Virus record (IMG/VR): IMGVR_UViG_3300028024_000002 | Location: 1-37,908 of that record | Reading direction: 5' to 3' (one strand) | Source: a virus | Length of the DNA stretch: 37,908 bases | Shown here: positions 8,317 through 24,537 of the stretch, one piece after another | Position numbering within the stretch: position 1 is the stretch's first letter | Layout: each line of letters starts with the position of its first letter | The notes under the pieces: model-generated | Told to the model about the DNA's origin: nothing | Database searches by the model: none | Seen by the model: only the letters and a program-made list of their open reading frames with translations | Position numbers and translations under genes: made by a program

Positions 8317-8333
8317 AACACCCCTGGAACGAA

Positions 8334-8481: not shown

Positions 8482-8510
8482 GTGTCGGAAGTCGTTATTT
8501 TTCAACACCT

Positions 8511-8561: not shown

Positions 8562-8576
8562 GTTTCTTTAAGGCCT

Positions 8577-8795: not shown

Positions 8796-8866
8796 GGACT
8801 TGTTCTCATTACGTTCTCGCCATGGAACGCTGCCCGGCCGGCGGAGTCAAGAGATCGGCGGGCGCC

Positions 8867-9525: not shown

Positions 9526-9898
9526 TTGCCCTCGCTTTCAGTGCGTCTAGCTGGTTGTTGAGGTCGGAGATCTCCGCGGCTTGCTGCTGCGCCGTCTCGT
9601 CGGCGATCGACTGCGCCTTGGCGAGATCGGCCGTCTGGCGCGTCAGCTGGGCCGCCTGGTCGTCAATGACGCCCTGCATGTCGGCGGCGGATTTCTGCCA
9701 GCGCAACACATCCACGGCGAGCGTGTCAGCTCGATCGCGAAGCGTGCCGATCGTCTCCTGCGCTGCATGCAGGCGGGCGCTCTGGATCCAGGCGAAGCCG
9801 CCGAGGCCGATGACGGCAACGGCCACGATCGCCCATGGCAGGATCTTCTTGATGGTCATGCCGCCCACCTGGGCGGCCACTGGTGCCAAGAAAGCCAT
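9413..9898 (-). CDS. i-spanin (N-terminal TM plus coiled coil)
   Basis: The TM segment is ILPWAIVAVAVIGLGGFAWI, followed by a long Q/A/D-rich helix. ATG 9898 has GAGGGG upstream. The ATG at 9916 is the alternative start. Confidence 0.65.
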   Translation of the reverse strand: MAFLAPVAAQVGGMTIKKILPWAIVAVAVIGLGGFAWIQSARLHAAQETIGTLRDRADTLAVDVLRWQKSAADMQGVIDDQAAQLTRQTADLAKAQSIADETAQQQAAEISDLNNQLDALKARANAHPDQVRPLGPIVLDVLGGMRGEGRPAAPAAPAVGH

Positions 9899-9950
9899 TT
9901 CATCCCCTCGCTTCATTCTGGCGGTGTGACGAGCTCTGCAGCGGCCGCCA

Positions 9951-10520
9951 TCACGGCAGCGCCTCCATCATCTGCTGCCACTGCGCGATGCGAGACACAT
10001 AGGTCAGCGTTTCGCGCGCATGGTCGCCGGTGACGAGAGGCAGGCAAGGCACGACGGTCGACCAGGCCGGGGCGCCGGGACAGAGCCGCAACGCCTTCCG
10101 GATGTTGCCGGCGCCGGCGTTATAGGCCGCCTGAGCCATCTTGTGGCGCTCCGGGTCGGGCCAGGCCCGCCAGTCGGCGAAACGCCGCTGCTGCGCCATG
10201 TAAAGCGCGCCGCCATAGATCGCCGGCTCCACGTCATAGGCGGAAGCCTCACCAATCTGCAGCTGCGGCAGGATCTCGCGCCAGGTCCCGGGCATGATCT
10301 GCGCCAGGCCGGCGGCACCGACCGGCGACTTGGCGGCCGGGTTCAGCTTGCTTTCCTGGTAGAGCTGCGCCTTCCAAGCCTGCGCGCGCGGATAGTCCGG
10401 CCAATAACGCAGGACCGCCCGCGCGATCAGCAGGTCGTACTTAGCTGAAAAAGATGGCGGCTGCGCCCAGGATGCAGAGCCCCAGCCAGCGGTTACCCAA
10501 ATAGCGAGCGACAGCGCCAT
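9951..10520 (-). CDS. Lytic transglycosylase (SLT domain) endolysin with an N-terminal signal/SAR-like segment
   Basis: The SLT motif is YQESKLNPAAKSPVGAAGLAQIMPGTW. The start was chosen at the internal ATG (MALSLAIWVTAGWGSASWA). The part of the track ORF upstream of it looks like shadow. Confidence 0.8.
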   Translation of the reverse strand: MALSLAIWVTAGWGSASWAQPPSFSAKYDLLIARAVLRYWPDYPRAQAWKAQLYQESKLNPAAKSPVGAAGLAQIMPGTWREILPQLQIGEASAYDVEPAIYGGALYMAQQRRFADWRAWPDPERHKMAQAAYNAGAGNIRKALRLCPGAPAWSTVVPCLPLVTGDHARETLTYVSRIAQWQQMMEALP

Positions 10521-10677
10521 TGCCTTTGCGAATTTCACCCCAGGCCTCCTTGAAGTTGATGCCGGCGCGGCGGTCGAGGATCCGGGAATAGGCCCACACG
10601 CAAAAGCAGCCGCCGCCGAAAACCAGCGCCTTGCCGACATATCCCCGGACTTGTTCATCACTCAGTAGCTCGTTCAT
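10441..10677 (-). CDS. Two-TM small membrane protein, putative holin/pinholin
   Basis: 78 aa from the internal ATG at 10677, which is preceded by GGAGGGG and forms an ATGA overlap upstream. TM segments are ALVFGGGCFCVWAY and WLGLCILGAAAIFF. Confidence 0.55.
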   Translation of the reverse strand: MNELLSDEQVRGYVGKALVFGGGCFCVWAYSRILDRRAGINFKEAWGEIRKGNGAVARYLGNRWLGLCILGAAAIFFS

Positions 10678-10961
10678 GGGTCGACCCCTCCTCTGTTGAT
10701 AGCGGTGCTGGCCTGATTGATGTTTGTCTTGCGTGCCTGCGCGTCTTCCAGGCGATCGATCCGCCGCAAAGCATCCTCCATCTTTGAGGCGTAGACGGCT
10801 TGGTTGAGCAGCACCTGGTCGATCGCCTTGCCCTGCTCTTTGAGGTCCGACCAAGCGGTCGCGCCGATCGCCGTCAGGATCGGCAACGAGAACCGCGCGA
10901 CCAGCTTCACCCAGGCATTGTCGGCCGCTTGCTCCGCGCGCTTGGCGAGATCGCCCGACAT
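10674..10961 (-). CDS. Single-TM protein with a coiled-coil tail (holin/antiholin candidate)
   Basis: 95 aa from the ATG at 10961, with GGAGGTGG upstream and TGATG coupling. The TM segment is FSLPILTAIGATAW. Confidence 0.5.
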   Translation of the reverse strand: MSGDLAKRAEQAADNAWVKLVARFSLPILTAIGATAWSDLKEQGKAIDQVLLNQAVYASKMEDALRRIDRLEDAQARKTNINQASTAINRGGVDP

Positions 10962-11407
10962 CAACCCACCTCCGGCCAAGCGAAGGCCGGCAAGCTTTCA
11001 ATAAAATCGTCAATCGTCGGTTGCTCGATCTGCCCGGAAACGACGAGCGCAAGCTGCTGCGCTGCATATTCCCAGACCTGATCACGCCATACCGACAGCG
11101 CGTTCGCTTCCGCCTTGAACTTTGCGTTCGTGCTATTGGCGTAGCTGCAGGCCGATACAATGTTGTCGTAATCCCGCTCCTTAGCCTTGTCGTCTAGAGC
11201 ACCGCCGATCGCTACTCGGTAGTCTTCGATGCTGGGCGGTGGCGGCGGCGGTGGCATGACGTAATTGCCGCCGTCGAATAACCAGTTGACCCCGACATCG
11301 TCCGGCGCGTCGTCGCGCACCTGTGTCATCAGGTCCTCATGCAGTACTGGCATCTCCGCAAATAATTCCACGACGCGACCGGCATCTATACGAACGATCT
11401 TGCTCAT
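10961..11407 (-). CDS. Putative tail-fibre assembly/chaperone-like protein
   Basis: 148 aa from the ATG at 11407 (RBS GAGG), immediately after the fibre gene. It contains a poly-Pro run. The N-terminal part of the track ORF is shadow. Confidence 0.45.
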   Translation of the reverse strand: MSKIVRIDAGRVVELFAEMPVLHEDLMTQVRDDAPDDVGVNWLFDGGNYVMPPPPPPPSIEDYRVAIGGALDDKAKERDYDNIVSACSYANSTNAKFKAEANALSVWRDQVWEYAAQQLALVVSGQIEQPTIDDFIESLPAFAWPEVG

Positions 11408-11414
11408 GTTGACC

Positions 11415-12746
11415 TCACGCATATTCGAAGATGACAACAAGGCCAGTCCCGCCATTGCCACCGGCAACGATAGGCGTTGTGGCATTGTAAGCACCGATGC
11501 CACTCGCACCGCCGGCGCCGGAATTCGGGTCGGCGCTATAGCCGGCCGTCGCGGTAACTGAGTTGGCCTGAGCCCCAGCGCCACCAAAGGGACCGGCTCC
11601 GCGGGCGCCTGGCATCGTTTGGGTCCCTGTTCCGTATGCGTTGAACATCGGGCAGCTGTCACCGCGCAAATTGATGTCGCCACCGCTACCGATGCCACCA
11701 ACTCCGACCGTGCCGGTTACGCCCTGACCTTGGCGCCCCACGCCGCCGGCTCCACCGGTCGCACTGCACCAAGCTCCAAATGATGACGTCCCGCCTGCTG
11801 ATCCCTGCGCAATAGCCGCGTTGGATGCGCCGCCGCCCGCCGCTCCAACGGTCACGGTCTCGGCCGCAGCAAGCGCTGAGGTTAAGATTTTCTTGATAGC
11901 GCAGCCACCGCCCGCGCCAGATTGTGCCCCGCCATAGAGCGATGCCATACCTGACGTGCTGCCTGCGCCTCCGCCTGCGCCCAGCACATAAATGACAACG
12001 AAGCTGCTGGCCATGTTCTTGTTGTAAGTACCGCTGGCGGTATAGACGACGACATTCAAAAGGCGACCGGCCGTAATGCCCGTCAGGTTGGCGCCATTAA
12101 CAGCGGGCAACTTACCAGCCGCATCAAGCTGCACCACGTTGTTTGCCGCTGTGCCAACATTTTGCGTAGCAGCGCTTCCCAAGCCGATGGCGTTTCGCAT
12201 GGACGCATCGGTCGTAAGGGCTGCGCCCCAGCCACCATTCGCCCGCGACACAGGCAAGGGGATGTCGGCGGTGCCGTAGAGCTTGTTGACCAAGCCGGAC
12301 CCATCATCGGCCCAGCCCAGTAGCTTGCCGGCTTCCGGCGTCACCTGCAGAGAAACGCTTCCGGTGACTGTCGGGCTCAGGCTGATGCAACGCGACACAC
12401 CGCGAAGGATCTGCTGGCAAATGGTGGTCAGCTTGTCGAAGGCCCGCTCGACGACACTGCTCGGAAACTTGTCACCAGCCGGAAACACCGCCGTCTGGGT
12501 CGCCGGCGTATTGCGTTCCAGGATGACGTTCTTCACACCAACGGCCGGGGGCACGGGGATCGTCACGTTGCCACCTGTCGGAACCCCGACATTGCTAACC
12601 GTGTAATCGGCGGTCAGCGTCTTAGTGACGCCATCGACGATGACCACCATATCCTCGGCGGCATAGATAATGTTGTCATACGGGAAGATGGTCGTTACAC
12701 CATCGCCGTTATATTCCCACCGCGAAGTTGTGTCCGTTGTCGACAT
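11415..12746 (-). CDS. Tail fibre protein with a glycine-rich C-terminal domain
   Basis: 443 aa. The N-terminus YNGDGVTTIFPYDNIIYAAEDMVVIVDG is typical of podovirus fibre/adaptor N-termini. The C-terminus has GAGGGAG/GGAGGVG runs. Confidence 0.7.
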   Translation of the reverse strand: MSTTDTTSRWEYNGDGVTTIFPYDNIIYAAEDMVVIVDGVTKTLTADYTVSNVGVPTGGNVTIPVPPAVGVKNVILERNTPATQTAVFPAGDKFPSSVVERAFDKLTTICQQILRGVSRCISLSPTVTGSVSLQVTPEAGKLLGWADDGSGLVNKLYGTADIPLPVSRANGGWGAALTTDASMRNAIGLGSAATQNVGTAANNVVQLDAAGKLPAVNGANLTGITAGRLLNVVVYTASGTYNKNMASSFVVIYVLGAGGGAGSTSGMASLYGGAQSGAGGGCAIKKILTSALAAAETVTVGAAGGGASNAAIAQGSAGGTSSFGAWCSATGGAGGVGRQGQGVTGTVGVGGIGSGGDINLRGDSCPMFNAYGTGTQTMPGARGAGPFGGAGAQANSVTATAGYSADPNSGAGGASGIGAYNATTPIVAGGNGGTGLVVIFEYA

Positions 12747-12755
12747 GGCGTTCCC

Positions 12756-15700
12756 CTACTGCACGTCAAAGATACGGCGCTGCCCCATTTCCTTGCGGCG
12801 CATGCGCTCCTGCCGCGCGAGATAGCCGGGCGAGGCTGCCTCGTGCAGGCTGTTCAAGATCAGGAAGTCGAGAGCCGGCCGCGCATACCACATGTTCAGC
12901 AGCGGCACGTTCTGCAGGAAGACATTGAGGGCATCGCCGGCACGGGCATCGCCGTCGCGTGCGTGCATGGCGAGGTTGAGGAGATTGGAAGCAGCACCGA
13001 GGGTCGGCCCCGCCACTGTCTCCAGCGGCCCATTGCCGAAGCGCGATGCCTGACCGAATAGGAAATCGCCATAGATACCGCCGCCGCCCCCTTGTGCCAG
13101 CGCCGCCAGGATCGTCTTGGGATCGGTCGGATCGCGCGGCGGCCACCAGCCGCGCAGGATGTCTTTCGCGGTCATCGACAGATAGCCGGCAATGGTGAGG
13201 CCGACGATCAGATGGCCGATATGGCCGCTGTTGTTGAGGATCCGCGCCGGCAGGCTGCCGCCCTGCCCGCCACTGATGGCGCGGCCGAGGACGCGATTGG
13301 TAAAGGCGATTGGGTAGCCCTTGAACTGGCCGATGAAGCGCGCCGCCTCGCCCCAGAATGAGCCCGGCCGCAGCCCCCAATACAGCATCCGCCGTGCTTG
13401 GTCGTCGGTCTCAATGACGGCGAAATTCATCTCGTCGGCGAAATAGCGGCGGACCGACAGCTCCAGATCATAGCGCTCTCCGTCGCGCCGCCGCGCCAGC
13501 CAACCGTCAAACTTTGCCTGTCGATCGGCCATCACCTGCGCCGGCACGGGGACTTCCCGGCCGAACTGCTTCATGGTCGCCTGGCCGAGCTTGAAATGCG
13601 CCTTGGCCTCCGCGATGTCGGCCGCGGGGATCAGGGTATCGATGACGTGGTCGGGAAGGTCGCGGATCCGGTCGCCAGTCACATAGACGTTGCCGTTTTG
13701 CGCCCGATACTGCGCTTGGCGCAGTGCGTCCCACCGCTCGGCCGTGATGCCGTGCAGCGACAGGCCGTGGCGGAAGCGAGCCTCCAGCTTGGAAAAAGCG
13801 GTATCCACCTTCGATCCCATATAGGCCGACAGGATGCGGGCGCCGGCGGAACGCTGCGCATCGGTCCAGCGCGTGAGGCCGCTCCAGCGGAAGCCCCATT
13901 CCATCGCCTTCGACATGACACCGGGAACACTGTCGCCCGCGACATGCGGACTGAGGACATGGCCGATCAACCCGTCATAACCCTCGCCGATCAGATAGGC
14001 GAGCTCGCGCTCGAAGCCCTGGCCGCGGCCCTTGACGCTCTCGACCAGCTGGTCGGCATAGCTCTTGAACAGCGGCTTGCCGTGGAAATGCAGGTTAGCG
14101 GCACCCGTCACCACATCGGACATGGAGGAGACAACGGCCGCCATTAGCTTCGACATGCTTTGCCAGGCGCGAATGCTGCTGCCGATCCGGGCCGCCGTGA
14201 GATTTTCCGGTGCCAGGGTCAGGCCCCGCACCTCGGCAAGGGCGCTGGCGATCCGGCCATGGCCGTCCGTCGTCAGGGCGCGGATTTGGCCCTGCTTCGC
14301 CGCATCGGGGATCCGCTTGTCGTTGCGGATGCGCAGCTGCAGGCTGTCCATCAAGCCGGACAGCATGACCTCCGGATTTGGGCCGAGGATCTGCATCTGT
14401 GACGCCAGGCGCGCGGCGCGCTGTTGATGCGCGATCATCGAGGTCACGACGTTGCCATGGCCGAACTGGCGGTTATAGGCCAGCCAATCATCCGCCGATT
14501 TGAAGTGCAGCACCCGGTGGCGCTCCAGGGTTCGGGCAAGGTTGGCGGGGCCGGTAAATTCGCCCTTCTGGGCCGCAGTGATGGTGCTGTCGCGGCCGGT
14601 GACGATCGTGCGGTAGGCCTGGCGCAAGAATTCCACCGGATCGTCGATCGCCTTGCGCAAGTCGCCCCGCTGCAGATCCAGCTGCTTTTGCTGGTCGCGC
14701 AGGCTTGATCGCCGCTTGTCGGCCGCATCGCGGCGGGCCTCGACCTCGGCACGCTGATCCGGCAGCTGCTTGCGCTCAGCCTCGATCTTGGCGAGCGCGC
14801 CGTCGATCCGGTCGATCACGTCATGCGCCTGGTTGGCCTTGCGGCGCAACCGGTTGAGGCCGACGGTGTTCTCGCTCGCGGCGCCCTTCAGCCTGCCTGG
14901 CTGGCTGCGCCGCAGGGCATCGCGAAGTTCCGGCCGGGCCGAGACCTGGCGCTCGATGTTGCGCATCAGATAATCGGCCTGCTGATCCGGATCTACGACC
15001 ATGGCGTCCTTAGTGCCAAGATCGCCCTCGCGCGCCTGCTCGACCATGACGGTGGCAAGATCGTCGACATGCTCGGCCTTGTTGAACGGCGCATCCCGCT
15101 CGTCCTCGACGAAGCCCTTGAAATGCTCCCATAGCTCTTTCCGCGCCGCTGCGTCGATCTCGCCCCGTTCCAGCTTGAGGCCGTACTCAAACAGCCGCTC
15201 GTGCCAGGCATCGGTGAATTCGACCTGCCGGCTTTCAAACTGGATCTTGCGGGGAGCGATCGACGACTTGCCTTTGGGGTTGCTGTTGCGCAGGGCCTTG
15301 GCGGCCGCCTTCAGGCGCGCACGGTTGCCGGATAGCCGCTGCAGGGTCGCACCATATTCGCCCTGCCGCTCCTGCAGCCTTGCATCAGCAATCGCCCGCC
15401 GGCGCTGCAGGGCCTCGGCACGCCCGGCCAGCAGGGTCTCGCGGTCGTCGATTGCCTCCAGTCCTTGGCTCAACAGCCGCACCGATTTGTCCGCCGCCTC
15501 CAGATCAGCCGTCACGCGCTCATGCTCGGCCGCCAGGGTATCGATGCGCGCCTGGTCGCGGCCAAAGGTGCGGTCCATGTCGAGGCGCGGCAGGATCGCC
15601 TGCACCCATTCGCTTTCGGTAGCACCCAGCAGCTTGTGCGGGTCATGTACCTGCGGCCCGGCCCAGCCATCCAGCTTACCAATCGCGGCACCCATGCGGT

Positions 15701-16286
15701 TCAAGTCGGTCCGGGACAGTTCGGCGAAGGTGGCGAAAGTCCGCGCCATCCATTGCGCGTCCTGGTTCTTGGTGACGCCCGGCTTGCCGCCTTGGCGCAA
15801 CTCGAACATCTCGCGGACGATGTCGTCGGCAAAGGTACTGTCGCCCAGCATGCGCTCGATATGCGGCCGCTCGCGCTGGATGGTTGCCAGCATGTCGCCG
15901 ACGAAGCGGCTCTCGAAGGCGAGGCGCGTCGCCGACACTGAGACGCGGCCGGAGGCAATACCCTTGGCCGTGCCTTCCAGCACCGCCAGCACCGCGCGGG
16001 GATAGCTGAGCCCGCTGGCGACATGGTCGGCGATGGTGCGCTCCAGCCTGTCCCGCACGATCGCATTGAGCGCGGCATGCTTACGCTGCAGCGCCGCCGC
16101 GATCTTGGCCTTCTGCCCCTCCTCGCGCGCCAGCTGGCGCAGCCGGCGGTCCAGCTGGTCGATCTTGCCCTCTGCGGTCAGGCGGTCGCGATAGCCCTGG
16201 ATCTTCTCGAAGACCTGTTCCAGATCCTGGTCGCTGATATTCGGCGCGACGCGCCGGACGATATCGATACATTCCTGCGCGCTCAT
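12756..16286 (-). CDS. Large internal virion/ejection protein (T7 gp16 position) with a C-terminal hydrophobic segment
   Basis: 1176 aa from the ATG at 16286, which has an ATGA overlap and GAGGG upstream. It is long and helical, with the segment IGHLIVGLTIAGYLSM near the C-terminus. Confidence 0.65.
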   Translation of the reverse strand: MSAQECIDIVRRVAPNISDQDLEQVFEKIQGYRDRLTAEGKIDQLDRRLRQLAREEGQKAKIAAALQRKHAALNAIVRDRLERTIADHVASGLSYPRAVLAVLEGTAKGIASGRVSVSATRLAFESRFVGDMLATIQRERPHIERMLGDSTFADDIVREMFELRQGGKPGVTKNQDAQWMARTFATFAELSRTDLNRMGAAIGKLDGWAGPQVHDPHKLLGATESEWVQAILPRLDMDRTFGRDQARIDTLAAEHERVTADLEAADKSVRLLSQGLEAIDDRETLLAGRAEALQRRRAIADARLQERQGEYGATLQRLSGNRARLKAAAKALRNSNPKGKSSIAPRKIQFESRQVEFTDAWHERLFEYGLKLERGEIDAAARKELWEHFKGFVEDERDAPFNKAEHVDDLATVMVEQAREGDLGTKDAMVVDPDQQADYLMRNIERQVSARPELRDALRRSQPGRLKGAASENTVGLNRLRRKANQAHDVIDRIDGALAKIEAERKQLPDQRAEVEARRDAADKRRSSLRDQQKQLDLQRGDLRKAIDDPVEFLRQAYRTIVTGRDSTITAAQKGEFTGPANLARTLERHRVLHFKSADDWLAYNRQFGHGNVVTSMIAHQQRAARLASQMQILGPNPEVMLSGLMDSLQLRIRNDKRIPDAAKQGQIRALTTDGHGRIASALAEVRGLTLAPENLTAARIGSSIRAWQSMSKLMAAVVSSMSDVVTGAANLHFHGKPLFKSYADQLVESVKGRGQGFERELAYLIGEGYDGLIGHVLSPHVAGDSVPGVMSKAMEWGFRWSGLTRWTDAQRSAGARILSAYMGSKVDTAFSKLEARFRHGLSLHGITAERWDALRQAQYRAQNGNVYVTGDRIRDLPDHVIDTLIPAADIAEAKAHFKLGQATMKQFGREVPVPAQVMADRQAKFDGWLARRRDGERYDLELSVRRYFADEMNFAVIETDDQARRMLYWGLRPGSFWGEAARFIGQFKGYPIAFTNRVLGRAISGGQGGSLPARILNNSGHIGHLIVGLTIAGYLSMTAKDILRGWWPPRDPTDPKTILAALAQGGGGGIYGDFLFGQASRFGNGPLETVAGPTLGAASNLLNLAMHARDGDARAGDALNVFLQNVPLLNMWYARPALDFLILNSLHEAASPGYLARQERMRRKEMGQRRIFDVQ

Positions 16287-19200
16287 CCCGCCCTCGCTAC
16301 ACACGCCGCGGCGGCATCGAGGCCGGCCGCGTATTCATCCGCCTGCGCCGCCGCCGCATCCGCGTCGCGAATGGCGTTCACCTCATCCGGCCGCAACCGG
16401 CTCTCGATCTGCTTCAAGGCCGCCGCTTCGTCGAAATCGCCGCTCTCGCTGTCGATGCCGAGCTCGCGCGCCAGATCTTCCAGGCCGCCGGCGGGCTGTT
16501 CGATCCGCGCGGCGGCGGCCGCGACTTCCGGATCCGCTGGCAGATCTGGCGCGGTTGCCGTGCTCAGCTGCTTTCCCTCGGCGCCGCGCGCCGTCGCCAG
16601 GATGTCCCGTGCCGACAGCGCCTCGCCGAACAGGCGTGGGCCGGCAAGGTTCATGCTGGCCTGGTCGACATAGCGGCCGAGCCCGATGCGCAGCTTCTCC
16701 TGGCCGACCGCGCGTGACAGGTTCTCGCCATACATCAGCTGCAGGAAGGCGCGCACCTCGGCCGATCGCGGGTCGAACATGTCCATCTGATCGGCGAGGT
16801 CGCGCAGCTTCGCGCCGGTATCGCGGGCGCGCCGGATCATGCCGACCGCCTGCATCAGCGCGACCGTCTGGTCCATTTCCGGGATGATGTCGCCGATCGC
16901 CGCTGCGACGCGCAGCTTGACCCAATCCGGCGCCAGGTCGGTCAGGGCCTTGCCGATCGTCCGCATATTGTCGTCGGTGCTTTCCAGCAGCCCGCCGATC
17001 AGGTGGGGATCCTCATAGGCCCGCGCCAGCAGGGCCGCCTGCAGGCGCCGCACGCCATCTTGCGAGAGCCGCCCCTGCGCATCGACCAGGGCGCCGCGTT
17101 CTGCCGCCGGCACGGTCTCCAGCCAGCTCCGGACAAAATCGCGGTTGCCGGCGGCGCCGATGTCGCCGCCGCTCCACAGGTCAAAGATCTCGTTTGGCAG
17201 GTTGCGGGCGTCGGACTGCGCCCGCTCAGCGGCACCCATGGCGAGCGTGGTACGGTCATTTGCCTCGCGCGCGAGGGCGGCGCGGTCTTCCAAGGAGAGA
17301 TCGCCGAGGCGCCGGCGGATCAGAATGGGCTCTTTCATGCCGTCGATGGCAAAGCCCTGGTCCTTCAGCCAAGCACGATAGGCCGCGGCCGTCTGCAGGC
17401 CCTCGGCATAGGCGCGGCGGATGGCGAGCGTGCGGCCATTGCCGCTTTCGACGATGTTGTCACCACCGACGATCGGGGCGCCGTCGCCGGCGGCGGCTGT
17501 GCGGCCCAGCAGCTCGGGATCCAGGCGCGCGGAAATGTCCGCGATCTGCGCTGCAGATGCGGCCCGGCCGCGGTCGCGCGGCTGCAATTCGGCGGGGAAA
17601 GCGGGATTTACGGCGAGTTCGCCGTTATGGCTGGTAACGAGCGACGCCGCATCGACCACCTCATAGCGCACCGGCACACGCCGGCCGGCCGAGGTGACGG
17701 CGACGGATTGACGGGCTAGGGTTTGGGTTTGCCCGCCGGCTTCAGATCGGCCACCACTTCGCGCAGGGCCTTCAGCTGGTAGTGATCCGTCGAGGCGTCG
17801 AGATCCAGGAACATTTGATCCGGGGCCGTCTCCGCCGTCGGGGTCGTGTCGTTGGCTACCTTTTTCGACGAGGGCCGGGCTGGACCCCCGGGGAACGTCG
17901 TTCGAGTATCGGGCATAGCTGTCTGCCTCCGATTTTAAGGCCTCATAAGTCCGGATAGGCGCATCGCCGACGGACCGCACATACTCAGGATCGACGAAGC
18001 GGCCTTCCTCGCGGAAGCGCTTGATCGCACGGTTAACGGCCTTTTCTGAGGGAATTTCGGCCAGGACGAGATGAACATCGTAACCTGCCTGCTTCAGAAG
18101 GTGGATACGCTCGCGGATATTGTCAAGCGTTTTTCCAACCAGGGGCAGCACCAGGTTGTCGCCGGAGCGCACCGCCCGGGCCAGGACACCGGCCGCGATC
18201 TGGTCGCTCTCCTGGTGGACGGCCATCGCGCCGAGCCCGCCCTGGAACTCTGGCAGCTGCGCCTTGGCCGCGTCGCTGTCGACGATCAAGGCCCTATACT
18301 GCGCCGCCAGGGGATCCGCGATGGTGCTCTTGCCGGCGGCCGGCGGGCCAAGGACGATCACCGCCTGGCGGTTCTTGGCGCCGGCGCCCTCCCCGTACAG
18401 CCGGTCCGTCAGCGACGCCCGCAGCTGGTCGCGCTCCGGCGTCGAGACGGCGATCGTCTGCTGCATGGCCCGCGACTGGCTTTGCGCGGCGATCACATCG
18501 GCCGGCCAAGGCTCACCCGGTCGCCAGACCATCTCCTCGGCATTGCTGACCTTGCCGCGCAGGCTGTCGGCTGCGGCGACCGCATCCGGGGCCAGCCCGA
18601 CCGGCCGGCCTGCCGCGAGGTCGCCTGCCGCCTGCGACAGCAGATCCGCGGCTGCTTGCCGCCCGCCCATGTCATCGACGGCGCCGTGGCCGCGCCAGGC
18701 TTCCCAGCCGCCATGCGCGCCGCCAGCGGCTGCCCCGAACAGGCCGGAAAAGGCGATATCCATCGCCGCCTGCGTAAAGGTCGTGTCGTCGCCGAACTGC
18801 CGCTTGCTGGGGATCAGGTAGGGTTCCGACGCCGCCGTACCGGCCGCGGCCTCCCCGCCCTGCACGACGGCGCGGCCCAGCACCTTGCCGGCGGTCGGCC
18901 CCAGGAAGCGCGCCATGCGGGCAACGACTGCGGCCTTGGCGACAGGGCCGGCAAGAGGGATGAAGTTGACGGGATCCGGCGCACCGCCCAGGAGCTCGGC
19001 GCCAAAACCCAGGACCGAGCGCGCACCGTAGGGGCTGCGGTCGATCAGGTAGCGGCGATAGGCATTCTCGTCGAAGGCATCAGCCTTGGCCTGCGCGCGG
19101 GCGACGGTCATCCGGTTGTCGAACGGAACGCCGTCACGGTAATAGGGCGACTTCTTCCAATCGTCCTCGCTCAGCAGCGGCACATCTGTCCGCACCATGC

Positions 19201-19420
19201 GCGGCGGGCCGCGATGCACACCCTGCGTCGGGTCGACCATGCGGTCGTCATTGGGGATAGCGACGTTCGCTTGACCCTGACCAAGGGTCGAATTCCACCA
19301 ACCTTCGCGCAGCTTAGAGCCTAGATAGTCGCCGATCGGCGTTTGAAAATTCTCGACCTCCGACAGGCGGTCGAAAACGTCGGAAGTGCTGACGGAAGGG
19401 AAAGGCTGCAGGTCGCTCAT
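16283..19420 (-). CDS. Polyvalent internal virion protein with a zeta-toxin/AAA_33-like P-loop kinase domain and a possible ParB/Srx-like module
   Basis: 1045 aa. Walker A is VIVLGPPAAGKST, followed by LIVDSDAAK and then GYDVHLVLAEIPSEKAVNRAIKRFREEGRFV. The downstream module reads ELQPRDRGRAASAAQI...VESGNGRTLAIRRAY. The frame anomaly at 17716-17916 is reported in the findings. Confidence 0.65.
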   Translation of the reverse strand: MSDLQPFPSVSTSDVFDRLSEVENFQTPIGDYLGSKLREGWWNSTLGQGQANVAIPNDDRMVDPTQGVHRGPPRMVRTDVPLLSEDDWKKSPYYRDGVPFDNRMTVARAQAKADAFDENAYRRYLIDRSPYGARSVLGFGAELLGGAPDPVNFIPLAGPVAKAAVVARMARFLGPTAGKVLGRAVVQGGEAAAGTAASEPYLIPSKRQFGDDTTFTQAAMDIAFSGLFGAAAGGAHGGWEAWRGHGAVDDMGGRQAAADLLSQAAGDLAAGRPVGLAPDAVAAADSLRGKVSNAEEMVWRPGEPWPADVIAAQSQSRAMQQTIAVSTPERDQLRASLTDRLYGEGAGAKNRQAVIVLGPPAAGKSTIADPLAAQYRALIVDSDAAKAQLPEFQGGLGAMAVHQESDQIAAGVLARAVRSGDNLVLPLVGKTLDNIRERIHLLKQAGYDVHLVLAEIPSEKAVNRAIKRFREEGRFVDPEYVRSVGDAPIRTYEALKSEADSYARYSNDVPRGSSPALVEKGSQRHDPDGGDGPGSNVPGSRRLDGSLPAEGPARSGGRSEAGGQTQTLARQSVAVTSAGRRVPVRYEVVDAASLVTSHNGELAVNPAFPAELQPRDRGRAASAAQIADISARLDPELLGRTAAAGDGAPIVGGDNIVESGNGRTLAIRRAYAEGLQTAAAYRAWLKDQGFAIDGMKEPILIRRRLGDLSLEDRAALAREANDRTTLAMGAAERAQSDARNLPNEIFDLWSGGDIGAAGNRDFVRSWLETVPAAERGALVDAQGRLSQDGVRRLQAALLARAYEDPHLIGGLLESTDDNMRTIGKALTDLAPDWVKLRVAAAIGDIIPEMDQTVALMQAVGMIRRARDTGAKLRDLADQMDMFDPRSAEVRAFLQLMYGENLSRAVGQEKLRIGLGRYVDQASMNLAGPRLFGEALSARDILATARGAEGKQLSTATAPDLPADPEVAAAAARIEQPAGGLEDLARELGIDSESGDFDEAAALKQIESRLRPDEVNAIRDADAAAAQADEYAAGLDAAAACVARAG
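17716..17916 (-). CDS. Embedded +1-frame ORF (66 codons) inside the polyvalent protein gene; status unresolved (overprinted gene, frameshift product or ancestral frame)
   Basis: The ATG at 17916 has GGAGG 9 nt upstream. By my count GC3 is about 81% in this frame against about 42% in the host frame over 17716-17860. It ends at TAG 17716. Confidence 0.4.
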   Translation of the reverse strand: MPDTRTTFPGGPARPSSKKVANDTTPTAETAPDQMFLDLDASTDHYQLKALREVVADLKPAGKPKP

Positions 19421-21540
19421 GGGTAATACCCTGGCGTCTGCTCGATCTCGGATTGCGCCTTATCAAGCTCCTCTCGGTGCTTCTTGGCGGCGTCCATCAC
19501 CTCCTGCAGGCTCCAGACGCGCGGGTTGCCATCGGCGCCGGCGACGGCCTTGCCGGTCCCCGGCTCGATCAGGACGAAGCCATTGCCCGAATTGATCCAG
19601 ACGCCCCGGGTCACGGTCGGCTTGAGGTGATAGGCCTCCCACTGCCGGGCGGCAGCCTTGTCGGTCGGCCGATCAGCTTCGAGCAGTTGCGGGATCGCGC
19701 TCTCACGCAGATACGCAAAGCCCTCCTCCAGCTTATCGGCGTCGGTTCCTTTGGCGACGACGACCTGCGCCAGGTCATCGACACTCACCGGCTCCAGATG
19801 ACCGAACAGGTCGGCATAGCTGGTCGTATCGGCCTTATCGAGGCCGGCGGCCGATCGCGCCCGCACCACATGCTCCAGGTCGGCGCTGTCCGCCTCGATA
19901 CGCTGGTCGTAGGCAGCGTCGCCGGTCAGTTGGTATTGCTTCGCCAGCACCCCGCCGATGCCATCGCTATAGGCGTCATGCGCCTGCTTGCGGATCGTTT
20001 TGACATCGTCGTCGGTCAGCACTGCCTTTGCCGGCGGGGCCGACAGTTCACCCAAGACCCGGCGGGCAACAGGGACGCGGCTGGGATCATCGCGCACCAT
20101 GTCGAGCGCCCGGCGCACACTCTCCGGCAGCTTCGCCGCCTCCAGCTGTGCGAGCGCCTGGCCCGCCTGGTCGCCCGGCAGCTGCAGCAGCTGCGCGACG
20201 AGCCCGAATTTTTCATCCGGCGTCGTCGCCGAATTGAACCGCTTCACGAACTGGTCAGCCTCATCCGGCTTGAACACCGGCACATCGACGCCATAGGTCG
20301 CCTTGGCCCGCGTCACCGCCTGCATGCGCGCCTGCACCTGGTCGGGTTTGGAGAAATCCAGCTGGGTGTGCGGCACCACGCCCTGCGCCTCGGCCCAGGT
20401 CAGGGGATCCTGCTTGATCTGGTCGACGACGCGGCCCAGCACCTTCTCGCCCGTTTGAACGCGATTGGCGAGTGCGGCGGCCATGACCGGATTGTCGGCC
20501 TTGGCGGCATCCTGTTGTGTCCGCTTGATCTCCGTCAGGATATCGGCCGGCGCCATCTTCAGCAGGTTGGTGGTCCAGCCGAGATCCGCCTTGGCCTGCT
20601 GCAGCGTGCCCGCCGTCTTCGGGTCCAGCTTGTTTGCGCGTGAGACCAGGTCGTCGAAGCCGGCATAGACCGTGCCATCCCGCAGCGCCGTCAGCGCGAA
20701 ACTCGCCTCGGTGTGCAGATCCGCAACAGCCGCTCGACGATCGGCTTCGGCCAGGCGCTTTTGCTGTTCTGCCTCGGCCTCGCGCCGGTGCAGCTCAACC
20801 ATATTGTTATTGACCAGCGCATTCTTGCTGTCGGCCGAGAGATAGCCGTCGAACTTGCCGCTCGCCAGCATCTCCTTCGCCTTGTTCGGGTCTGTCTCAT
20901 TCAACCCCTCGAAGGCCGCTTGCGTGATGCCGTAGCGCGCGATCTGCCGCTGCCGCTCCTTCTCCGCCGGCGCCAGGCTCGATGCCTCGATCGCGCCCTC
21001 GGCAACACCGATCGCCTTTGGCAGACTGCCGAAATTGGTACGAACGCCGTTCGCCTGCAGATTGACCACGTCGCCGATATCACCGGCCTGCTTGTCGAGG
21101 CGGCTTTTCGCCTCGAAGGCCATGGAATGGCTGGCAATGTTCCCGCGCAGATCCGCGAAGCGCATCTCTATCCAAGGCCGCGCGCTCTCAGGCGCTGATG
21201 CGACCCGCTGCTTCACATCTTCGTCAAAGCCCTCCAACATACTCTTGGTGAAATCCGGCGCGCCGACAGCCGCATTATTCTGCGCGTCGATCATCTTCTG
21301 CTGCCAATCGATCTCAGCCTGCGAATAGGCCTTGGCTGCTGTTACGGCGTCTGACTTCTCACGCTGCCGCTGCGCCGCTTGGTTCGCCTGTTGCAGATCG
21401 CCGCTGATATCCGACCCGGCCTGGCTGATGGCGCCAAGGACGGATCCAGCAGCGCTGCTGCCGACATCGATCCGCGCAGCAGTGCCCCCACTGCCAGGCC
21501 CCGGTCGGTCACCAAGTTCATCCCATGTCGGAAGCCGCAT
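19417..21540 (-). CDS. Internal virion protein (T7 gp15 position)
   Basis: 707 aa, helical and coiled-coil rich. It has an ATGA overlap with the downstream gene. Confidence 0.6.
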   Translation of the reverse strand: MRLPTWDELGDRPGPGSGGTAARIDVGSSAAGSVLGAISQAGSDISGDLQQANQAAQRQREKSDAVTAAKAYSQAEIDWQQKMIDAQNNAAVGAPDFTKSMLEGFDEDVKQRVASAPESARPWIEMRFADLRGNIASHSMAFEAKSRLDKQAGDIGDVVNLQANGVRTNFGSLPKAIGVAEGAIEASSLAPAEKERQRQIARYGITQAAFEGLNETDPNKAKEMLASGKFDGYLSADSKNALVNNNMVELHRREAEAEQQKRLAEADRRAAVADLHTEASFALTALRDGTVYAGFDDLVSRANKLDPKTAGTLQQAKADLGWTTNLLKMAPADILTEIKRTQQDAAKADNPVMAAALANRVQTGEKVLGRVVDQIKQDPLTWAEAQGVVPHTQLDFSKPDQVQARMQAVTRAKATYGVDVPVFKPDEADQFVKRFNSATTPDEKFGLVAQLLQLPGDQAGQALAQLEAAKLPESVRRALDMVRDDPSRVPVARRVLGELSAPPAKAVLTDDDVKTIRKQAHDAYSDGIGGVLAKQYQLTGDAAYDQRIEADSADLEHVVRARSAAGLDKADTTSYADLFGHLEPVSVDDLAQVVVAKGTDADKLEEGFAYLRESAIPQLLEADRPTDKAAARQWEAYHLKPTVTRGVWINSGNGFVLIEPGTGKAVAGADGNPRVWSLQEVMDAAKKHREELDKAQSEIEQTPGYYP

Positions 21541-21552: not shown

Positions 21553-22047
21553 TTACGTCTTCCCGCCGCCGAGTTGCGGCGACGGATCGACATTGGATCC
21601 GTAGTAATTGTCATAGACTGAGGTCCCGCCACTCAGCAGTTTGGCGCCGCTCTTGACCAAGCCGCTGGCGAGATAGTTTCCGGAGTCCATGCGGTCGATG
21701 GCGGCTTGGCTTCTCAGCTTCGCCTCATCGGCTGTGGCGCTATGCTGGATCATCAGCGCGTCGAGCTCCGACTGGCCGGCAGTCTCCTCCATCACCAGCA
21801 GCGGGGAACCTTCGAGATCTAGGCCGCTCGCGCCAACCTGTGCGCGCTGCGTCGACAGCAGGCGCCGCGCCCGGTCCTTCACCTGCTGCGTCTGGTAGTC
21901 CGCTTCCTGTTGCCGGGCGGTTGCCTCGTTGTCCGCCACCTGCGCGTTGTATTTCGCCTGGTTGCTGGACTGCACTGCCGTCATGGCGGTGCCAGCGGCG
22001 GCGGCAACAATCGCGGCAATTGCGGCAGCCTCTTCGATCCCTGTCAT
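21553..22047 (-). CDS. Internal virion protein (T7 gp14 position) with an N-terminal hydrophobic helix
   Basis: 164 aa from the ATG at 22047, which forms an ATGA overlap with the GNAT stop. The hydrophobic helix is AAAIAAIVAAAAGTAMTAV. Confidence 0.55.
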   Translation of the reverse strand: MTGIEEAAAIAAIVAAAAGTAMTAVQSSNQAKYNAQVADNEATARQQEADYQTQQVKDRARRLLSTQRAQVGASGLDLEGSPLLVMEETAGQSELDALMIQHSATADEAKLRSQAAIDRMDSGNYLASGLVKSGAKLLSGGTSVYDNYYGSNVDPSPQLGGGKT

Positions 22048-22520
22048 GCCGCCTCCTCGCTTAATGCCGGACACGGAGCAACCCGGGCGTAGAGATAGTG
22101 ATCGTTGCCTGCGGGGTCATAGGCGGTCGCCTTGCCCTCGACCTTGAAGCCCAGCACATCCATCCAGCGGCAACCCTCGCCATGGCCGGCAAGAACGGTG
22201 GCCTCTATCCGCCGATAGCCCATGTCATGGGCCAGCTGCAGGATCCGCTGCACTTCGCGAGTAATCTTCACCCAGGCTGAGCGTGGCATCCGCCGATCGA
22301 TCAGTGACCAAGCCACGGCGCGGCCTTGCCATTGCGGCTTAATACCCGCGCAGCCGACCACCAGGTCGCCCGCCACCGCCGACCAGCTAAGTTCCGGCTC
22401 TTCCAGATACTCGCCATAGCCCTCGCGGCTCAACCAGCGCTGCACCGATCGCTGCGCCTGCTGCAAATCCATGTAATCGAGGTCATGCGCCTGGAACGGG
22501 CGAAAGCGAATGTCATTCAT
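22044..22520 (-). CDS. GNAT-family N-acetyltransferase
   Basis: 158 aa. The GNAT-like core is GCAGIKPQWQGRAVAWSLI...ILQLAHDMGYRRIEATVLAGHGEGCRWMDVLGF. It is translationally overlapped on both sides within the structural operon. Confidence 0.6.
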   Translation of the reverse strand: MNDIRFRPFQAHDLDYMDLQQAQRSVQRWLSREGYGEYLEEPELSWSAVAGDLVVGCAGIKPQWQGRAVAWSLIDRRMPRSAWVKITREVQRILQLAHDMGYRRIEATVLAGHGEGCRWMDVLGFKVEGKATAYDPAGNDHYLYARVAPCPALSEEAA

Positions 22521-24537
22521 CGGAGGTCACCACGCGCGGATAGAGCGACAGCACGGTCATCGGCAGCGGCTGGTCCTGGACGATCATCATGTCGCCGGTC
22601 GTGTCGTAATCGCCGGGGAAGTCGACAACGTTGTCACCAGAGAGAAGCGGCATCGGATGATCCATCGGCGCATCCGGATCGCGGTCCTGATTGACCGGCT
22701 CCCGATTGACGTCATCCCGGCCCAGCCAACCCAGCAGCGAGCGCAGCATGCGAACGATGACTTTGCTGATGATCTTAGTCTTGCCCTGCGCCGTGCCTTC
22801 GGCCTGGCCGGCCTCCAGCGGCATCGGCTTCAACCGCGAAACGAACTGCAAGCCGACATGGACCGTGTTGGCGGGATAGTCGAGCTCGACCTTGCCGCCG
22901 ACGACCTGCTTTTCCGGATGGACCGCGCCGTCCGTTAGGATCTGCACCGTCTCGCCTTCCAGATGGTCCAGGCCGGTGAGCTCGGTCACCGCAACATTGG
23001 GGTCACTGTAAGACAGACCGCAGTCGACATAGAATGCATCGGCCTGGTTGCCGCCCAGAGGCAGCGGATCTTCCAGCACTTCGACGTACCGCTTGACCTG
23101 GCCGTTGATCGTGCGACGGACGATCAGCCAGACCTCATCCGATCCGCCGGACCCTGGGATGGTCGCAACACTTTCAACGAAAGCATCACCCCCCAGGATA
23201 TGCCGGTGCCAGGCCGTCACCTGCTGCTCCGCGATATGCGTGCAGGCCGCCAACTGCCCGTCACTCCGGACTGCCCAGATGATGCTGAATGGCTCCGACT
23301 GATAGGCCATTTCGACGATGCCGGGGCGCGTCGCCTGCTCGGCAAGCAAGGTCAGGTCTTCCGCCTTGTAGCTGTCGGTCTCGAAGCTGTATTGCTCCTT
23401 CATGATCTTTCGGCCGAGCAGCTGCAGGAACACCGCGGCATCGTCGATCAGAACCGGCATGATGTTCGCGCACCGGCGCCTCGTGTGCGGCCGGGCTTTG
23501 GCATTCGTGGGGGTCAACGCGCTGGAGGCCGTATCCGCCTGGATGATGAACTCGGCGCCCCGCGTGCCGGCGACCAGGACGCGCATGGAAGCCAGCCACG
23601 AGATCTTGGCGACCCGGTCGAAGCCGAGCGAGAAAGCCAGTGGATCCCCGTCGGTCGTACCCGGCGTGAAGTTCTCAAAATCGCCTGTCTTGGACCCGTC
23701 GATCCGCTGCGGCCGCTCGACGGTGGAACTGCCGAAACACAGGCGCTCCTCATGGAACGTGTCAGATCCTGGCCAGCCGGCATAGTCCGACCACAGGCCC
23801 ATGCGCCACGTCGTAGCCGCCGTCGTTGCCGCAAAAGCCGTCTTCACATCGGCATGCACCTGCGTCGCGCTGTCGACCGTCGTAATCTTCGCATAGCCAT
23901 AGGCGGCACCGTTCTTGATCCGGATCAGCCGGCCCACGTCTCCCGCCTGGAAACCCAGACCGCGATTGATCCCGGTCACCGCCGATGCGGTAATCGTGAT
24001 GTTGGCGCCATTGGTGGCTGACGGTATCATCGTCGTGGTGGTGACGTTTTCGTCGAGATACGGCCCGTCGATGAAATCGATCGCCGTTAGGGTCCAGGCC
24101 GCATGCCCAGTGCGGGTCAGCTTGCGCGGCCCATATTTCGGATGAACGACATACATCACGTCGTTCGATTGGCACCACTTCAGCAGCGGGATATCCGCCG
24201 TCTTGTAAGGCGTCGCGATCTCATAGATCGCACCGCCGCCAGTCAGGATCTGCCCCTTGTTCATGTAGAAGCGGAAATAGAGATTGCCCGCCTCGATGAT
24301 GTATGCCTGCTCGTCCGAGAACTCGAAATTGATTGCGCGGCCGCGCTGGGTCGAGTCCTTGACCTCGGCAATGAAGCGCGTACCGCCGCGGCGTTCGGCC
24401 GGCCCCAGCGCCAAACACAGGAAGTTCTCGCAGATCTGCGAGCTGTTGTAGTAGCGCGATTGATCCGTTCGCCCGTTGAAATACGGGCTGGCCTCGCCGC
24501 CGGTAAAATTGGTGAGGGCTGGTGTCGCCTTCGGCAT
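22513..24537 (-). CDS. Tail tubular protein B (nozzle, T7 gp12-like)
   Basis: 674 aa. The N-terminus is LTNFTGGEASPYFNGRTDQSRYYNS, and the gene follows the gp11-like gene. Confidence 0.7.
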   Translation of the reverse strand: MPKATPALTNFTGGEASPYFNGRTDQSRYYNSSQICENFLCLALGPAERRGGTRFIAEVKDSTQRGRAINFEFSDEQAYIIEAGNLYFRFYMNKGQILTGGGAIYEIATPYKTADIPLLKWCQSNDVMYVVHPKYGPRKLTRTGHAAWTLTAIDFIDGPYLDENVTTTTMIPSATNGANITITASAVTGINRGLGFQAGDVGRLIRIKNGAAYGYAKITTVDSATQVHADVKTAFAATTAATTWRMGLWSDYAGWPGSDTFHEERLCFGSSTVERPQRIDGSKTGDFENFTPGTTDGDPLAFSLGFDRVAKISWLASMRVLVAGTRGAEFIIQADTASSALTPTNAKARPHTRRRCANIMPVLIDDAAVFLQLLGRKIMKEQYSFETDSYKAEDLTLLAEQATRPGIVEMAYQSEPFSIIWAVRSDGQLAACTHIAEQQVTAWHRHILGGDAFVESVATIPGSGGSDEVWLIVRRTINGQVKRYVEVLEDPLPLGGNQADAFYVDCGLSYSDPNVAVTELTGLDHLEGETVQILTDGAVHPEKQVVGGKVELDYPANTVHVGLQFVSRLKPMPLEAGQAEGTAQGKTKIISKVIVRMLRSLLGWLGRDDVNREPVNQDRDPDAPMDHPMPLLSGDNVVDFPGDYDTTGDMMIVQDQPLPMTVLSLYPRVVTSDE

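Follow-up and report, generated by a model that had tools for sequence, protein, structure and literature searches.

A zeta-toxin-family kinase domain in a modular protein of a podovirus ejection-gene cluster, with a substrate-site motif unlike that of the zeta toxins

The polyvalent proteins of phages and conjugative elements were described by Iyer, Burroughs, Anand, de Souza and Aravind (2017, J Bacteriol, PMC5512222). Among the domains named in that work are zeta-toxin-like kinases, which are fused to MuF in phages, and a DdrB-like ParB domain in late phage genes; the kinase was proposed to weaken the cell wall and in this way to aid DNA entry. Already in 2013, gene 114 of halovirus HCTV-5 (KC292027) was annotated as a 'zeta toxin and ParB nuclease domain protein' of 1293 amino acids (aa). 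Here we describe a 1045-aa protein encoded in a viral DNA stretch of 37,908 nucleotides (IMG/VR record IMGVR_UViG_3300028024_000002, positions 1 to 37,908; the whole stretch is called the window below), which carries both a zeta-toxin-family kinase domain and a DdrB-type ParB domain and is encoded among the genes of internal virion (ejection) proteins. Virion-delivered polyvalent proteins with a zeta-like kinase or a DdrB-ParB domain, and the fusion of the two, are already known, and an injected zeta-like kinase is less novel than the initial annotation had assumed, since such kinases had been described in polyvalent proteins in 2017. What appears to be new is that the T7/epsilon15-like ejection slot of podoviruses is the commonest viral home of this kinase clade, on a distinct N-terminal carrier, that cassettes are cleanly exchanged in this slot, and that clade-wide residue statistics contradict the specificity for uridine diphosphate N-acetylglucosamine (UDP-GlcNAc) that has been assumed.

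The protein resembles the polyvalent proteins in that it unites at least two disparate effector domains (the zeta-family kinase and DdrB-ParB), in that it is encoded with late virion genes and is predicted to be delivered along with the DNA, and in that its kinase clade shuffles with LPD38, LPD3, ART-PolyVal, MuF, MuF_C and PBECR3. It differs in its carrier, which is an unannotated N-terminal module in a podovirus ejection slot and not MuF, a portal or an N4-type RNA polymerase; and whereas the 2017 paper assumed a cell-wall precursor as the target, the clade described here is without the UDP-GlcNAc motif. With the zeta and PezT toxins (1gvn, 3q8x, 2p5t) it shares the fold, the Walker A lysine, the catalytic aspartate and an arginine (R158 of zeta, R468 here), but there is no antitoxin gene, the kinase is embedded in a 1045-aa virion-module protein, and GTxR is replaced in the clade by [K/L/R]-V-G-x. 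DdrB of phage P1 has the same ParB domain and helical extension, but is without a kinase and has a C-terminal metallopeptidase, and P1 is a myovirus with another packaging scaffold (DarA/Hdf). The HCTV-5 gene lies in a head-morphogenesis module, between the portal/ART/MuF genes and the capsid gene, and its protein (R4TLX6) is a structural match to our kinase model with a template modelling score (TM) of 0.84; HCTV-5 is, however, an archaeal tailed virus with a kinase only 27% identical, another carrier and another slot. AvrRxo1 of Xanthomonas, a 3'-kinase of nicotinamide adenine dinucleotide (NAD) (4z8q), is likewise an injected zeta-fold kinase and acts on a nucleotide cofactor, not on a UDP-sugar (PMC5087710; TM about 0.72), but the sequence relation is marginal (E=0.04), delivery is by type III secretion and there is a chaperone/antitoxin partner. 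Finally, gp14/gp15/gp16 of T7 and gp15-17 of epsilon15 (the latter according to the annotation of phage Piluca) have the same position and operon, with gp14-like and pilot-like flanking genes, but T7 has three ejection proteins, with a transglycosylase in gp16, and here an extra kinase/ParB gene is placed between the gp15-position gene and the pilot-like gene.

Taken as a whole, we read the protein as a modular, cargo-carrying podovirus ejection protein with a zeta-family kinase that would act on a substrate other than UDP-GlcNAc, and we give this reading a probability of roughly 0.6. The gene, the kinase domain and the motifs on which the reading rests are as follows.

16283-19420, minus strand: 1045-aa multidomain ('polyvalent') protein in the internal-virion/ejection slot, a complete open reading frame (ORF) with its stop (ORF list, Pfam).
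17846-18463, minus strand: zeta-toxin-family P-loop kinase domain, aa 320-525 (Pfam, profile search, AlphaFold2, Foldseek).
18326-18349, minus strand: Walker A P-loop GPPAAGKS, aa 358-365; K364 corresponds to K46 of zeta and K45 of PezT in the alignments.
18263-18280, minus strand: DSDAAK, aa 381-386; D383 corresponds to D67 of zeta and D66 of PezT in the alignments.
18206-18223, minus strand: clade-specific motif AVHQES, aa 400-405; H402, E404 and S405 are at least 97% conserved.
18128-18145, minus strand: PLVGKT, aa 426-431; aligns with E116-GTGR-T121 of zeta, the UDP-GlcNAc-binding GTXR motif.
17999-18031, minus strand: arginine cluster RAIKRFREEGR, aa 464-474; R468 corresponds to R158 of zeta.

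The 1045-aa protein holds a zeta-toxin-family kinase domain, and the similarity goes far beyond what chance would give. Pfam Zeta_toxin (PF06414) covers aa 350-496 with 53.5 bits against a curated cutoff of 22.3 (E=2.8e-14) and AAA_33 matches the protein at E=1.9e-9, in agreement with the initial annotation, which had named the zeta toxin/AAA_33 family. The motifs on which that assignment was based are present in the ORF, i.e. the Walker A motif VIVLGPPAAGKST at aa 354-366, the Asp-rich segment LIVDSDAAK at aa 378-386 and the C-terminal pattern GYDVHLVLAEIPSEKAVNRAIKRFREEGRFVDPEYV (GYDVHL...DPEYV) at aa 446-481, and the proposed span of 17860-18440 (aa 328-520) falls within the domain as delimited here. 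The fused DdrB-ParB domain downstream, which is the stronger Pfam match, had been overlooked. A phmmer search of the PDB sequences with the single sequence found zeta (1gvn) and PezT (2p5t) at about 1e-3; a profile built from an alignment of 29 homologous kinase domains (profile A1) found zeta at 6.6e-11, the polynucleotide kinase Pnkp1 at 6.2e-7, PezT at 5e-6 and AvrRxo1 at 0.04. NCBIfam returned P-loop matches below threshold only, and PADLOC returned no match.

The AlphaFold2 model of aa 320-525 has a predicted local distance difference test score (pLDDT) of 94.6 and a predicted TM (pTM) of 0.89. Its best neighbours in the PDB are zeta and PezT, as the assignment predicts: ranks 1-8 of the Foldseek search are chains of 1gvn, 3q8x and 2p5t (E=1.8e-10 to 2.6e-9, TM 0.69-0.77). 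Ranks 9-12 are AvrRxo1 (TM 0.70-0.74, E about 7e-7), the top 12 matches reaching 1.9e-6, and these are followed by adenylate kinases and polynucleotide kinases. The alignments to zeta, PezT and AvrRxo1 comprise about 210 columns and those to the polynucleotide kinases about 160, with TM values for the latter of 0.54-0.60 if normalised to the query; the bacterial polynucleotide kinases have 0.58-0.60 on the query and 0.68-0.71 on the target. The identity to zeta and PezT in these alignments is only 15-19%. In BFVD the best match to the kinase model is A0A6J5LTH6, a 1134-aa protein of an uncultured Caudovirales phage (TM 0.88). Its UniProt name is 'Anti-CBASS protein Acb1', which would, if correct, connect these kinases with anti-signalling domains, but no weight was given to it; in seven similar viral proteins with lengths of about 1100 aa, Zeta_toxin is the one domain that Pfam detects, and an Acb1-type domain was not found.

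Residue conservation was counted over 362 members of the kinase clade. The Walker A lysine K364 is kept in 360 of them, D381 and D383 in 361 each and K386 in 360, while in the arginine cluster R464 and R468 are found in all 362 and R474 in 354. D67 of zeta, the counterpart of D383, is the catalytic base that deprotonates the acceptor hydroxyl (PMC3062530). The counterpart of R171 of zeta is presumably one of R464 and R474. Judged from the alignments, the residue pattern is that of a working phosphotransferase. The AvrRxo1-type catalytic Ser/Thr and Asp have their equivalents in S365 and D383; the profile E-value for AvrRxo1 is only 0.04.

In the alignments, the UDP-GlcNAc contact residues of zeta are not kept. 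In zeta the sugar nucleotide is contacted by T118 (beta-phosphate), R120 (UDP phosphates), E100 (ribose 2'-OH) and T128 (uracil), the GTXR motif being G117-T121. In the 1045-aa protein P426 stands in the place of E116, V428 in that of T118 and K430 in that of R120; by alignment only, E100 corresponds to A410 and T128 to R438, and both of these columns are variable in the clade. In the clade as a whole, 97% of the members have V, I or L at position 428 and just 2.8% have T; P stands at position 426 in 96%, and position 430 is variable. A PezT variant with valine for the threonine of GTXR is nontoxic (PMC3062530). As the motif is replaced (T118 by V428), UDP-GlcNAc is probably not the substrate of the kinase, and the caution of the initial annotation, which had left the substrate open, was fitting. 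The clade has near-invariant residues of its own (H402, E404, S405, N422 and P426), and H402, E404 and S405 have no counterpart in zeta or PezT in the alignments. The zeta fold accepts other substrates: the 4'-OH of UDP-N-acetylmuramic acid (UDP-MurNAc) is phosphorylated by ng_zeta1, which binds this UDP-sugar turned by 180 degrees (PMC5923241), and AvrRxo1 is a zeta-fold kinase making 3'-NADP, the 3'-phosphorylated form of NAD (PMC5087710). With these precedents the domain is, going by its sequence, a member of the zeta kinase family that lies outside the UDP-GlcNAc 3'-kinases in the strict sense.

The clade is large. A HMMER scan of profile A1 against 1.84 billion representatives of 50% identity clusters gave 9372 matches at E<=1e-3, 5693 at E<=1e-10 and 1557 at E<=1e-30, and the best 150 representatives are mostly large proteins (median 1302 aa, maximum 6889 aa). 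A single peptide pattern led to 162 IMG/VR contigs, and the viral-locus counts cover 80 of these. In 80 of the 80 loci the kinase is part of an ORF with a length of 315-3919 aa, a pilot-like gene of the phrog_684 type follows directly downstream in 43, and at least one marker of the podovirus virion module seen in the window is found in 52. In viral contigs, the clade is thus met most often in the ejection-protein slot of small podoviruses. Zeta_toxin was detected in all of the 35 diverse viral homologues that were scanned with Pfam, the only recurrent partner domains being LPD38, ART-PolyVal, ddrB-ParB, MuF_C, LPD3, PBECR3 and glucosaminidase; fusions with MuF, NUDIX, GH108 and lysozyme domains also occur in the clade. 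Among the deposited phage genomes the kinase domain matches only haloarchaeal tailed viruses (about 28% identity) and a few mycobacteriophages.

Of 132 clade representatives, 13 have both the kinase and DdrB-ParB, usually side by side; the pairing is recurrent and not obligatory. In six giant proteins of 2153-4866 aa (P0166, P0178, P0186, P0197, P0220 and P0262) the kinase is followed by 33-80 residues and then by DdrB-ParB, collinear with residues of about 286-902 of the 1045-aa protein at 29-40% identity; in about 10% of the clade the pair behaves as a two-domain supermodule. Outside the ejection slot, two metagenomic contigs of 101 kb and 55 kb (L088, positions 4412-5104, and L089) encode a standalone 230-aa kinase that is 52% identical to the phage domain and directly follows a purU-like gene (ACT and formyl transferase domains); luciferase-like, amidase, acyl-CoA dehydrogenase and TIM protein genes lie around it, and neither phage genes nor an antitoxin gene were found in its surroundings. 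This context suggests that the clade also has cellular members, which are apparently non-toxic. A standalone 375-aa clade kinase is located just after the portal gene in two phage contigs with an SU10-type portal (L090, positions 6679-13357, and L091), and is followed by CsgF-like, CsgG-like, FecR-like and CHASE2-guanylate cyclase genes, an unusual cargo for a phage. With one peptide pattern the clade was found in 135 GTDB species representatives (loci L092-L171 among them), including Oscillospiraceae, Lachnospiraceae, Bacteroidota, Geobacteraceae, Dehalococcoidia, Vibrio and Treponema as well as the alphaproteobacteria Roseococcus, Rhodobacter and Methylobacterium.

The kinase domain is one of several parts of the 1045-aa protein, the others being the following.

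18464-19420, minus strand: N-terminal module, aa 1-319, Gly/Ala-rich and predicted to be mostly helical (BLASTP sharing among the slot proteins).
17714-17845, minus strand: Gly/Pro/Ser-rich linker, aa 526-569, predicted to be disordered (G+A+P+S = 0.57; pLDDT below 50, no secondary structure).
17291-17713, minus strand: DdrB-type domain of the ParB/sulfiredoxin superfamily, aa 570-710 (Pfam PF18763, E=7.9e-36, 123 bits, aa 578-704).
16706-17290, minus strand: helical extension travelling with the ParB domain, aa 711-905 (tblastn against P1 and Piluca; phrog_5143 and phrog_2299 cover aa 567-902).
16283-16705, minus strand: acidic helical C-terminal tail, aa 906-1045, common to P0002 and P0003 (low pLDDT).

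Comparison with related phages separates these parts. The nearest relative (P0002), 70% identical over its full length, is encoded in the same slot of a syntenic contig of 33 kb, which has a T7-type portal and a Bbp19 gene. A 712-aa protein (P0004) consists of the N-terminal module and the kinase only, and a 946-aa protein (P0003) of the N-terminal module and ParB only, its alignment to the 1045-aa protein skipping residues 324-543. In a prophage of Roseococcus thiosulfatophilus (P0006) ParB comes first and the kinase second, and the gene follows that of an SLT-bearing 1019-aa protein. The ejection slot is kept in five related loci (L001, L002, L003, L004 and L033); the last, a marine contig of about 36 kb, has the order nozzle, gp14-like, 764 aa, 1217-aa kinase protein, pilot-like and fibre. 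On these alignments we take the slot proteins to consist of a carrier module and of cargo that can be swapped (the kinase alone, ParB alone, or the two together).

The N-terminal module recurs in several relatives: BLASTP aligns aa 4-323 to P0003, aa 22-551 (module and kinase) to P0004, aa 16-298 to P0005 and aa 8-240 to the 1575-aa P0033, and about 300 N-terminal aa are common to P0003, P0004, P0005, P0033 and P0154. From this pattern of sharing in the slot the module is presumed to be a carrier, or virion-incorporation, module for differing cargo. Its maximum hydropathy is only 1.23, which argues against a classical transmembrane helix. The sole PHROG match of this part is a weak one to phrog_342, 'internal virion protein with endolysin domain' (E=3e-5), and a database of 5.8 billion proteins gave a single match, where the Gly/Ala-rich sequence probably swamped the word index. 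A Gly-rich segment, FSGLFGAAAGGAHGGWEAW (aa 216-273, positions 18602-18775, minus strand), has weak phmmer matches to the fusion-peptide region of influenza haemagglutinin HA2 (E=0.008-0.01), which may be low-complexity chance or may mark a membrane-active segment of an ejection protein. The linker after the kinase differs in length among homologues. The ParB region is modelled by AlphaFold2 at a pLDDT of about 80-91; by tblastn, aa 559-940 match DdrB of phage P1, P7, D6 and relatives at about 34% identity and Alcaligenes phage Piluca at 37%, and aa 568-902 align with residues 26-379 of P1 DdrB, i.e. its N-terminal third, at 34% identity. An HExxH or HxxEH motif is absent from the 1045-aa protein and Pfam gives no match to a peptidase family. 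It was accordingly not considered a P1 DdrB orthologue, as it is without the metallopeptidase and has the kinase in addition. The full-length AlphaFold2 model (10-row alignment) has a mean pLDDT of 51 and a pTM of 0.28 and is confident only in the ParB region and at aa 80-130.

The neighbours of the gene form a cluster of ejection genes, in line with the placement given by the initial annotation, which is borne out by the gene order and by the junctions.

22513-24537, minus strand: tail nozzle (tubular tail protein B), which opens the ejection-protein cluster (phrog_376, E=4e-201).
22044-22520, minus strand: 158-aa phrog_308 'internal virion protein' (PHROG match).
21553-22074, minus strand: gp14-like internal virion protein (phrog_418, E=3.3e-26; Pfam T7_gp14 weak, E=0.0015).
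19417-21540, minus strand: 707-aa gene in the gp15 position, the upstream neighbour; its stop overlaps the start of the kinase gene (ATGA).
12756-16304, minus strand: 1182-aa pilot-like/ejection virion protein, the downstream neighbour (phrog_684, E=6.6e-145).

The order around the kinase gene is thus nozzle, 158-aa, gp14-like, 707-aa, 1045-aa and 1182-aa genes and then the tail fibre, so that the phage has four ejection-slot genes against three in T7 (gp14, gp15 and gp16). The likely ATG of the 1182-aa protein is at 16286 and forms an ATGA overlap with the stop of the kinase gene. Start/stop overlaps of this kind thus join the 1045-aa gene to its neighbours on either side, and it is translationally coupled to the two. 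The 1182-aa protein matches the 'pilot protein' of phage Piluca (epsilon15 gp17-like according to the annotation of the Piluca authors) by BLASTP at E=3e-31. For the 707-aa protein no family was found in the Pfam or PHROG scans; genes of 710 to 764 aa are syntenic with it in L001, L002, L003 and L033.

That the 1045-aa protein is packaged in the virion we consider probable, with good confidence, on the basis of synteny and of the DdrB homologue. The ATGA coupling to ejection-protein genes and the conservation of the slot across divergent phages support an ejected protein, and the links of the clade to MuF and to portal-adjacent positions support packaging. So does the homologue known from P1 heads: mass spectrometry of P1 heads gave 39 unique peptides of DdrB, at a coverage of 59.5% (PMC9024508), and the Dar proteins, DdrB included, are internal proteins co-ejected with the DNA (PMC12810830). 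No antitoxin gene is adjacent; both neighbours are large virion-module genes and there is no small intergenic ORF. A toxin-antitoxin module was rejected for this reason, the gene lying within a structural operon.

On our preferred reading, the 1045-aa protein would be made late, from one translationally coupled operon with the other ejection proteins. The N-terminal module would direct its loading into the capsid core with the gp14-like, gp15-position and pilot-like proteins, and the protein would be released into the newly infected cell along with the DNA. There the kinase, whose phosphotransfer apparatus is complete (K364, D383, R464, R468 and R474), would be expected to move the gamma-phosphate of adenosine triphosphate to a hydroxyl of a substrate available at the start of infection. 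Without GTxR and with H-x-E-S and P-x-V-G motifs of its own, the clade most likely acts on a different nucleotide-type small molecule; such a small nucleotide other than UDP-GlcNAc is our leading candidate, although it is held tentatively and at somewhat less than even odds. A nucleic-acid end, handled jointly with the neighbouring ParB domain, would be a less likely substrate, at a rather low probability; a UDP-sugar seems unlikely too, if slightly less so, and about the same holds for some other substrate or an inactive kinase. As with the Dar system of P1, the ParB domain would act at the entering DNA or close to it. The lack of an antitoxin gene and the partnerless, 52%-identical standalone homologue among metabolic genes argue against cell killing, and the kinase activity may rather serve host takeover or counter-defence.

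By analogy with the 3'-NADP made by AvrRxo1, one could imagine that the H-x-E-S/P-x-V-G kinases are pre-made counter-defence enzymes that phosphorylate a free ribose hydroxyl of a nucleotide immune signal or of an NAD-derived precursor. We regard this as a long shot, and a link of zeta-like kinases to anti-defence was not found in the literature searched. If true, the kinase would neutralise Thoeris, CBASS or Pycsar signalling at DNA entry, before phage gene expression, and capsid-delivered phosphorylation of immune signals would be a new anti-defence mechanism beside sponges and phosphodiesterases.

Several points weigh against the reading of an ejected kinase with a substrate other than UDP-GlcNAc. 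The domain identities, the fold, the residue conservation, the synteny and the modularity are observed; packaging and ejection of the 1045-aa protein, its catalytic activity, the class of its substrate and its biological role are things we infer. The N-terminal module has no Pfam match and no tblastn match among GenBank phages, homology to gp15 or gp16 of T7 was not detected, and its pLDDT is below 50 in the full-length model. The substrate argument comes from sequence alignment to zeta and not from a superposed pocket, and the rotated UDP-sugar of ng_zeta1 (PMC5923241) means that loss of GTxR is no strict bar to a UDP-sugar. The two domains need not be functionally coupled, since only some 10% of the clade has the kinase-ParB pairing. 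In the literature searched no experiment on any clade member was found, and Iyer et al. assumed a role in cell-wall weakening (PMC5512222).

The model of Iyer et al., that the kinase phosphorylates UDP-GlcNAc or UDP-MurNAc and locally starves peptidoglycan synthesis, so that DNA entry is eased or, where much of the protein is made late, lysis is helped, has the nearest solved relatives on its side, since zeta and PezT are closest both by sequence and by structure and every bacterial zeta toxin so far characterised has a UDP-sugar as its substrate (PMC3062530, PMC5923241). Peptidoglycan hydrolase domains occur in related slot proteins or their neighbours (SLT in L004; GH108, lysozyme and glucosaminidase fusions), and ng_zeta1 is a case in which the UDP-sugar is bound in another way (PMC5923241). 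However, 97% of the clade carries V, I or L at T118, the kind of swap that makes PezT nontoxic, and GTxR as such is absent; R120, E100 and T128 are not kept either. The few injected molecules would face a large UDP-GlcNAc pool, an injected cell-wall poison would presumably harm the lysogeny of a temperate phage (integrase, repressor), and the standalone homologue is tolerated without an antitoxin. We therefore consider the cell-wall model unlikely. A polynucleotide 5'-OH kinase, acting on the incoming DNA or on host-cleaved RNA in cis with DdrB-ParB in a Dar-like antirestriction or repair process, appears more doubtful still. It would agree with the match of profile A1 to Pnkp1, which is better than that to PezT, with weak matches to PHROG 'polynucleotide kinase' families, with the Foldseek matches to bacterial polynucleotide kinases, with the adjoining DdrB-ParB in 13 of the 132 representatives, giant proteins included, and in HCTV-5, and with the membership of P1 DdrB in an antirestriction system (PMC12810830). 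On the other hand, the small-molecule kinases zeta, PezT and AvrRxo1 are clearly better structural matches, ParB is absent from 90% of the clade members and kinase-only proteins occupy the same slot; the shared D-x-x-K/R and Arg motifs are general to the fold and do not discriminate.

It is also conceivable that the 1045-aa protein is not injected, i.e. that it is a late cytoplasmic or assembly enzyme, or a prophage toxin (addiction, superinfection exclusion) residing in a structural operon. Zeta toxins are classically components of toxin-antitoxin systems, no known ejection protein is recognisably homologous to the N-terminal module, and the evidence for packaging of this particular protein is indirect. 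Such an explanation would nevertheless have to account for ATGA coupling to ejection-protein genes on both sides, for a slot kept across very divergent podoviruses, for the missing antitoxin gene and PADLOC match, for a fused DdrB domain with a homologue proven to be packaged in heads, and for clade partners (MuF, portal-associated and LPD domains) typical of virion-packaged proteins; we hold it to be very improbable. An ejected, cargo-carrying protein with a kinase for another substrate remains the reading that we prefer.

The window corresponds to approximately the entire genome of a temperate podovirus, as annotated from its gene content. The plus strand carries an integrase, a repressor-like gene and a ParB-like gene; a long minus-strand block holds primase, terminase, portal, a protease-like gene, the major capsid protein and tail tubular protein A, together with the nozzle, the ejection genes, tail fibre, endolysin and spanin. 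The virion module is arranged as in T7, epsilon15 and BPP-1. The ParB-like gene on the plus strand (2975-4483, 502 aa) matches phrog_4715, 'ParB-like partition protein', at E=1.5e-31, and adjoins the repressor-like and integrase genes in the early/lysogeny region; with the DdrB-ParB domain, the phage thus holds two unrelated proteins of the ParB fold. The 158-aa phrog_308 protein has a sub-threshold Pfam match to GNAT acetyltransferases (E=0.066), and Piluca has an annotated N-acetyltransferase at the equivalent position, to which sequence similarity was not found; the protein may be a second enzyme cargo in the ejection cluster. A megablast search with positions 12000-36000 of the window against 50,697 phage genomes gave no match and a genome scan with the whole 1045-aa protein found no close relative, the nearest named genome context being the Roseococcus prophage.

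The architecture as such will not surprise a specialist, but it is worth asking, and feasible to find out, what a very abundant and probably injected enzyme phosphorylates. The family comprises at least 1557 clusters (50% identity) at E<=1e-30, and the UDP-GlcNAc substrate assumed in the literature is unsupported by its conserved pocket residues. The cassette behaviour makes this podovirus lineage convenient for studying how cargo is loaded onto ejection proteins. The identity of the substrate would show what a phage must phosphorylate in the first seconds of infection, and could reveal new counter-defence or takeover chemistry.

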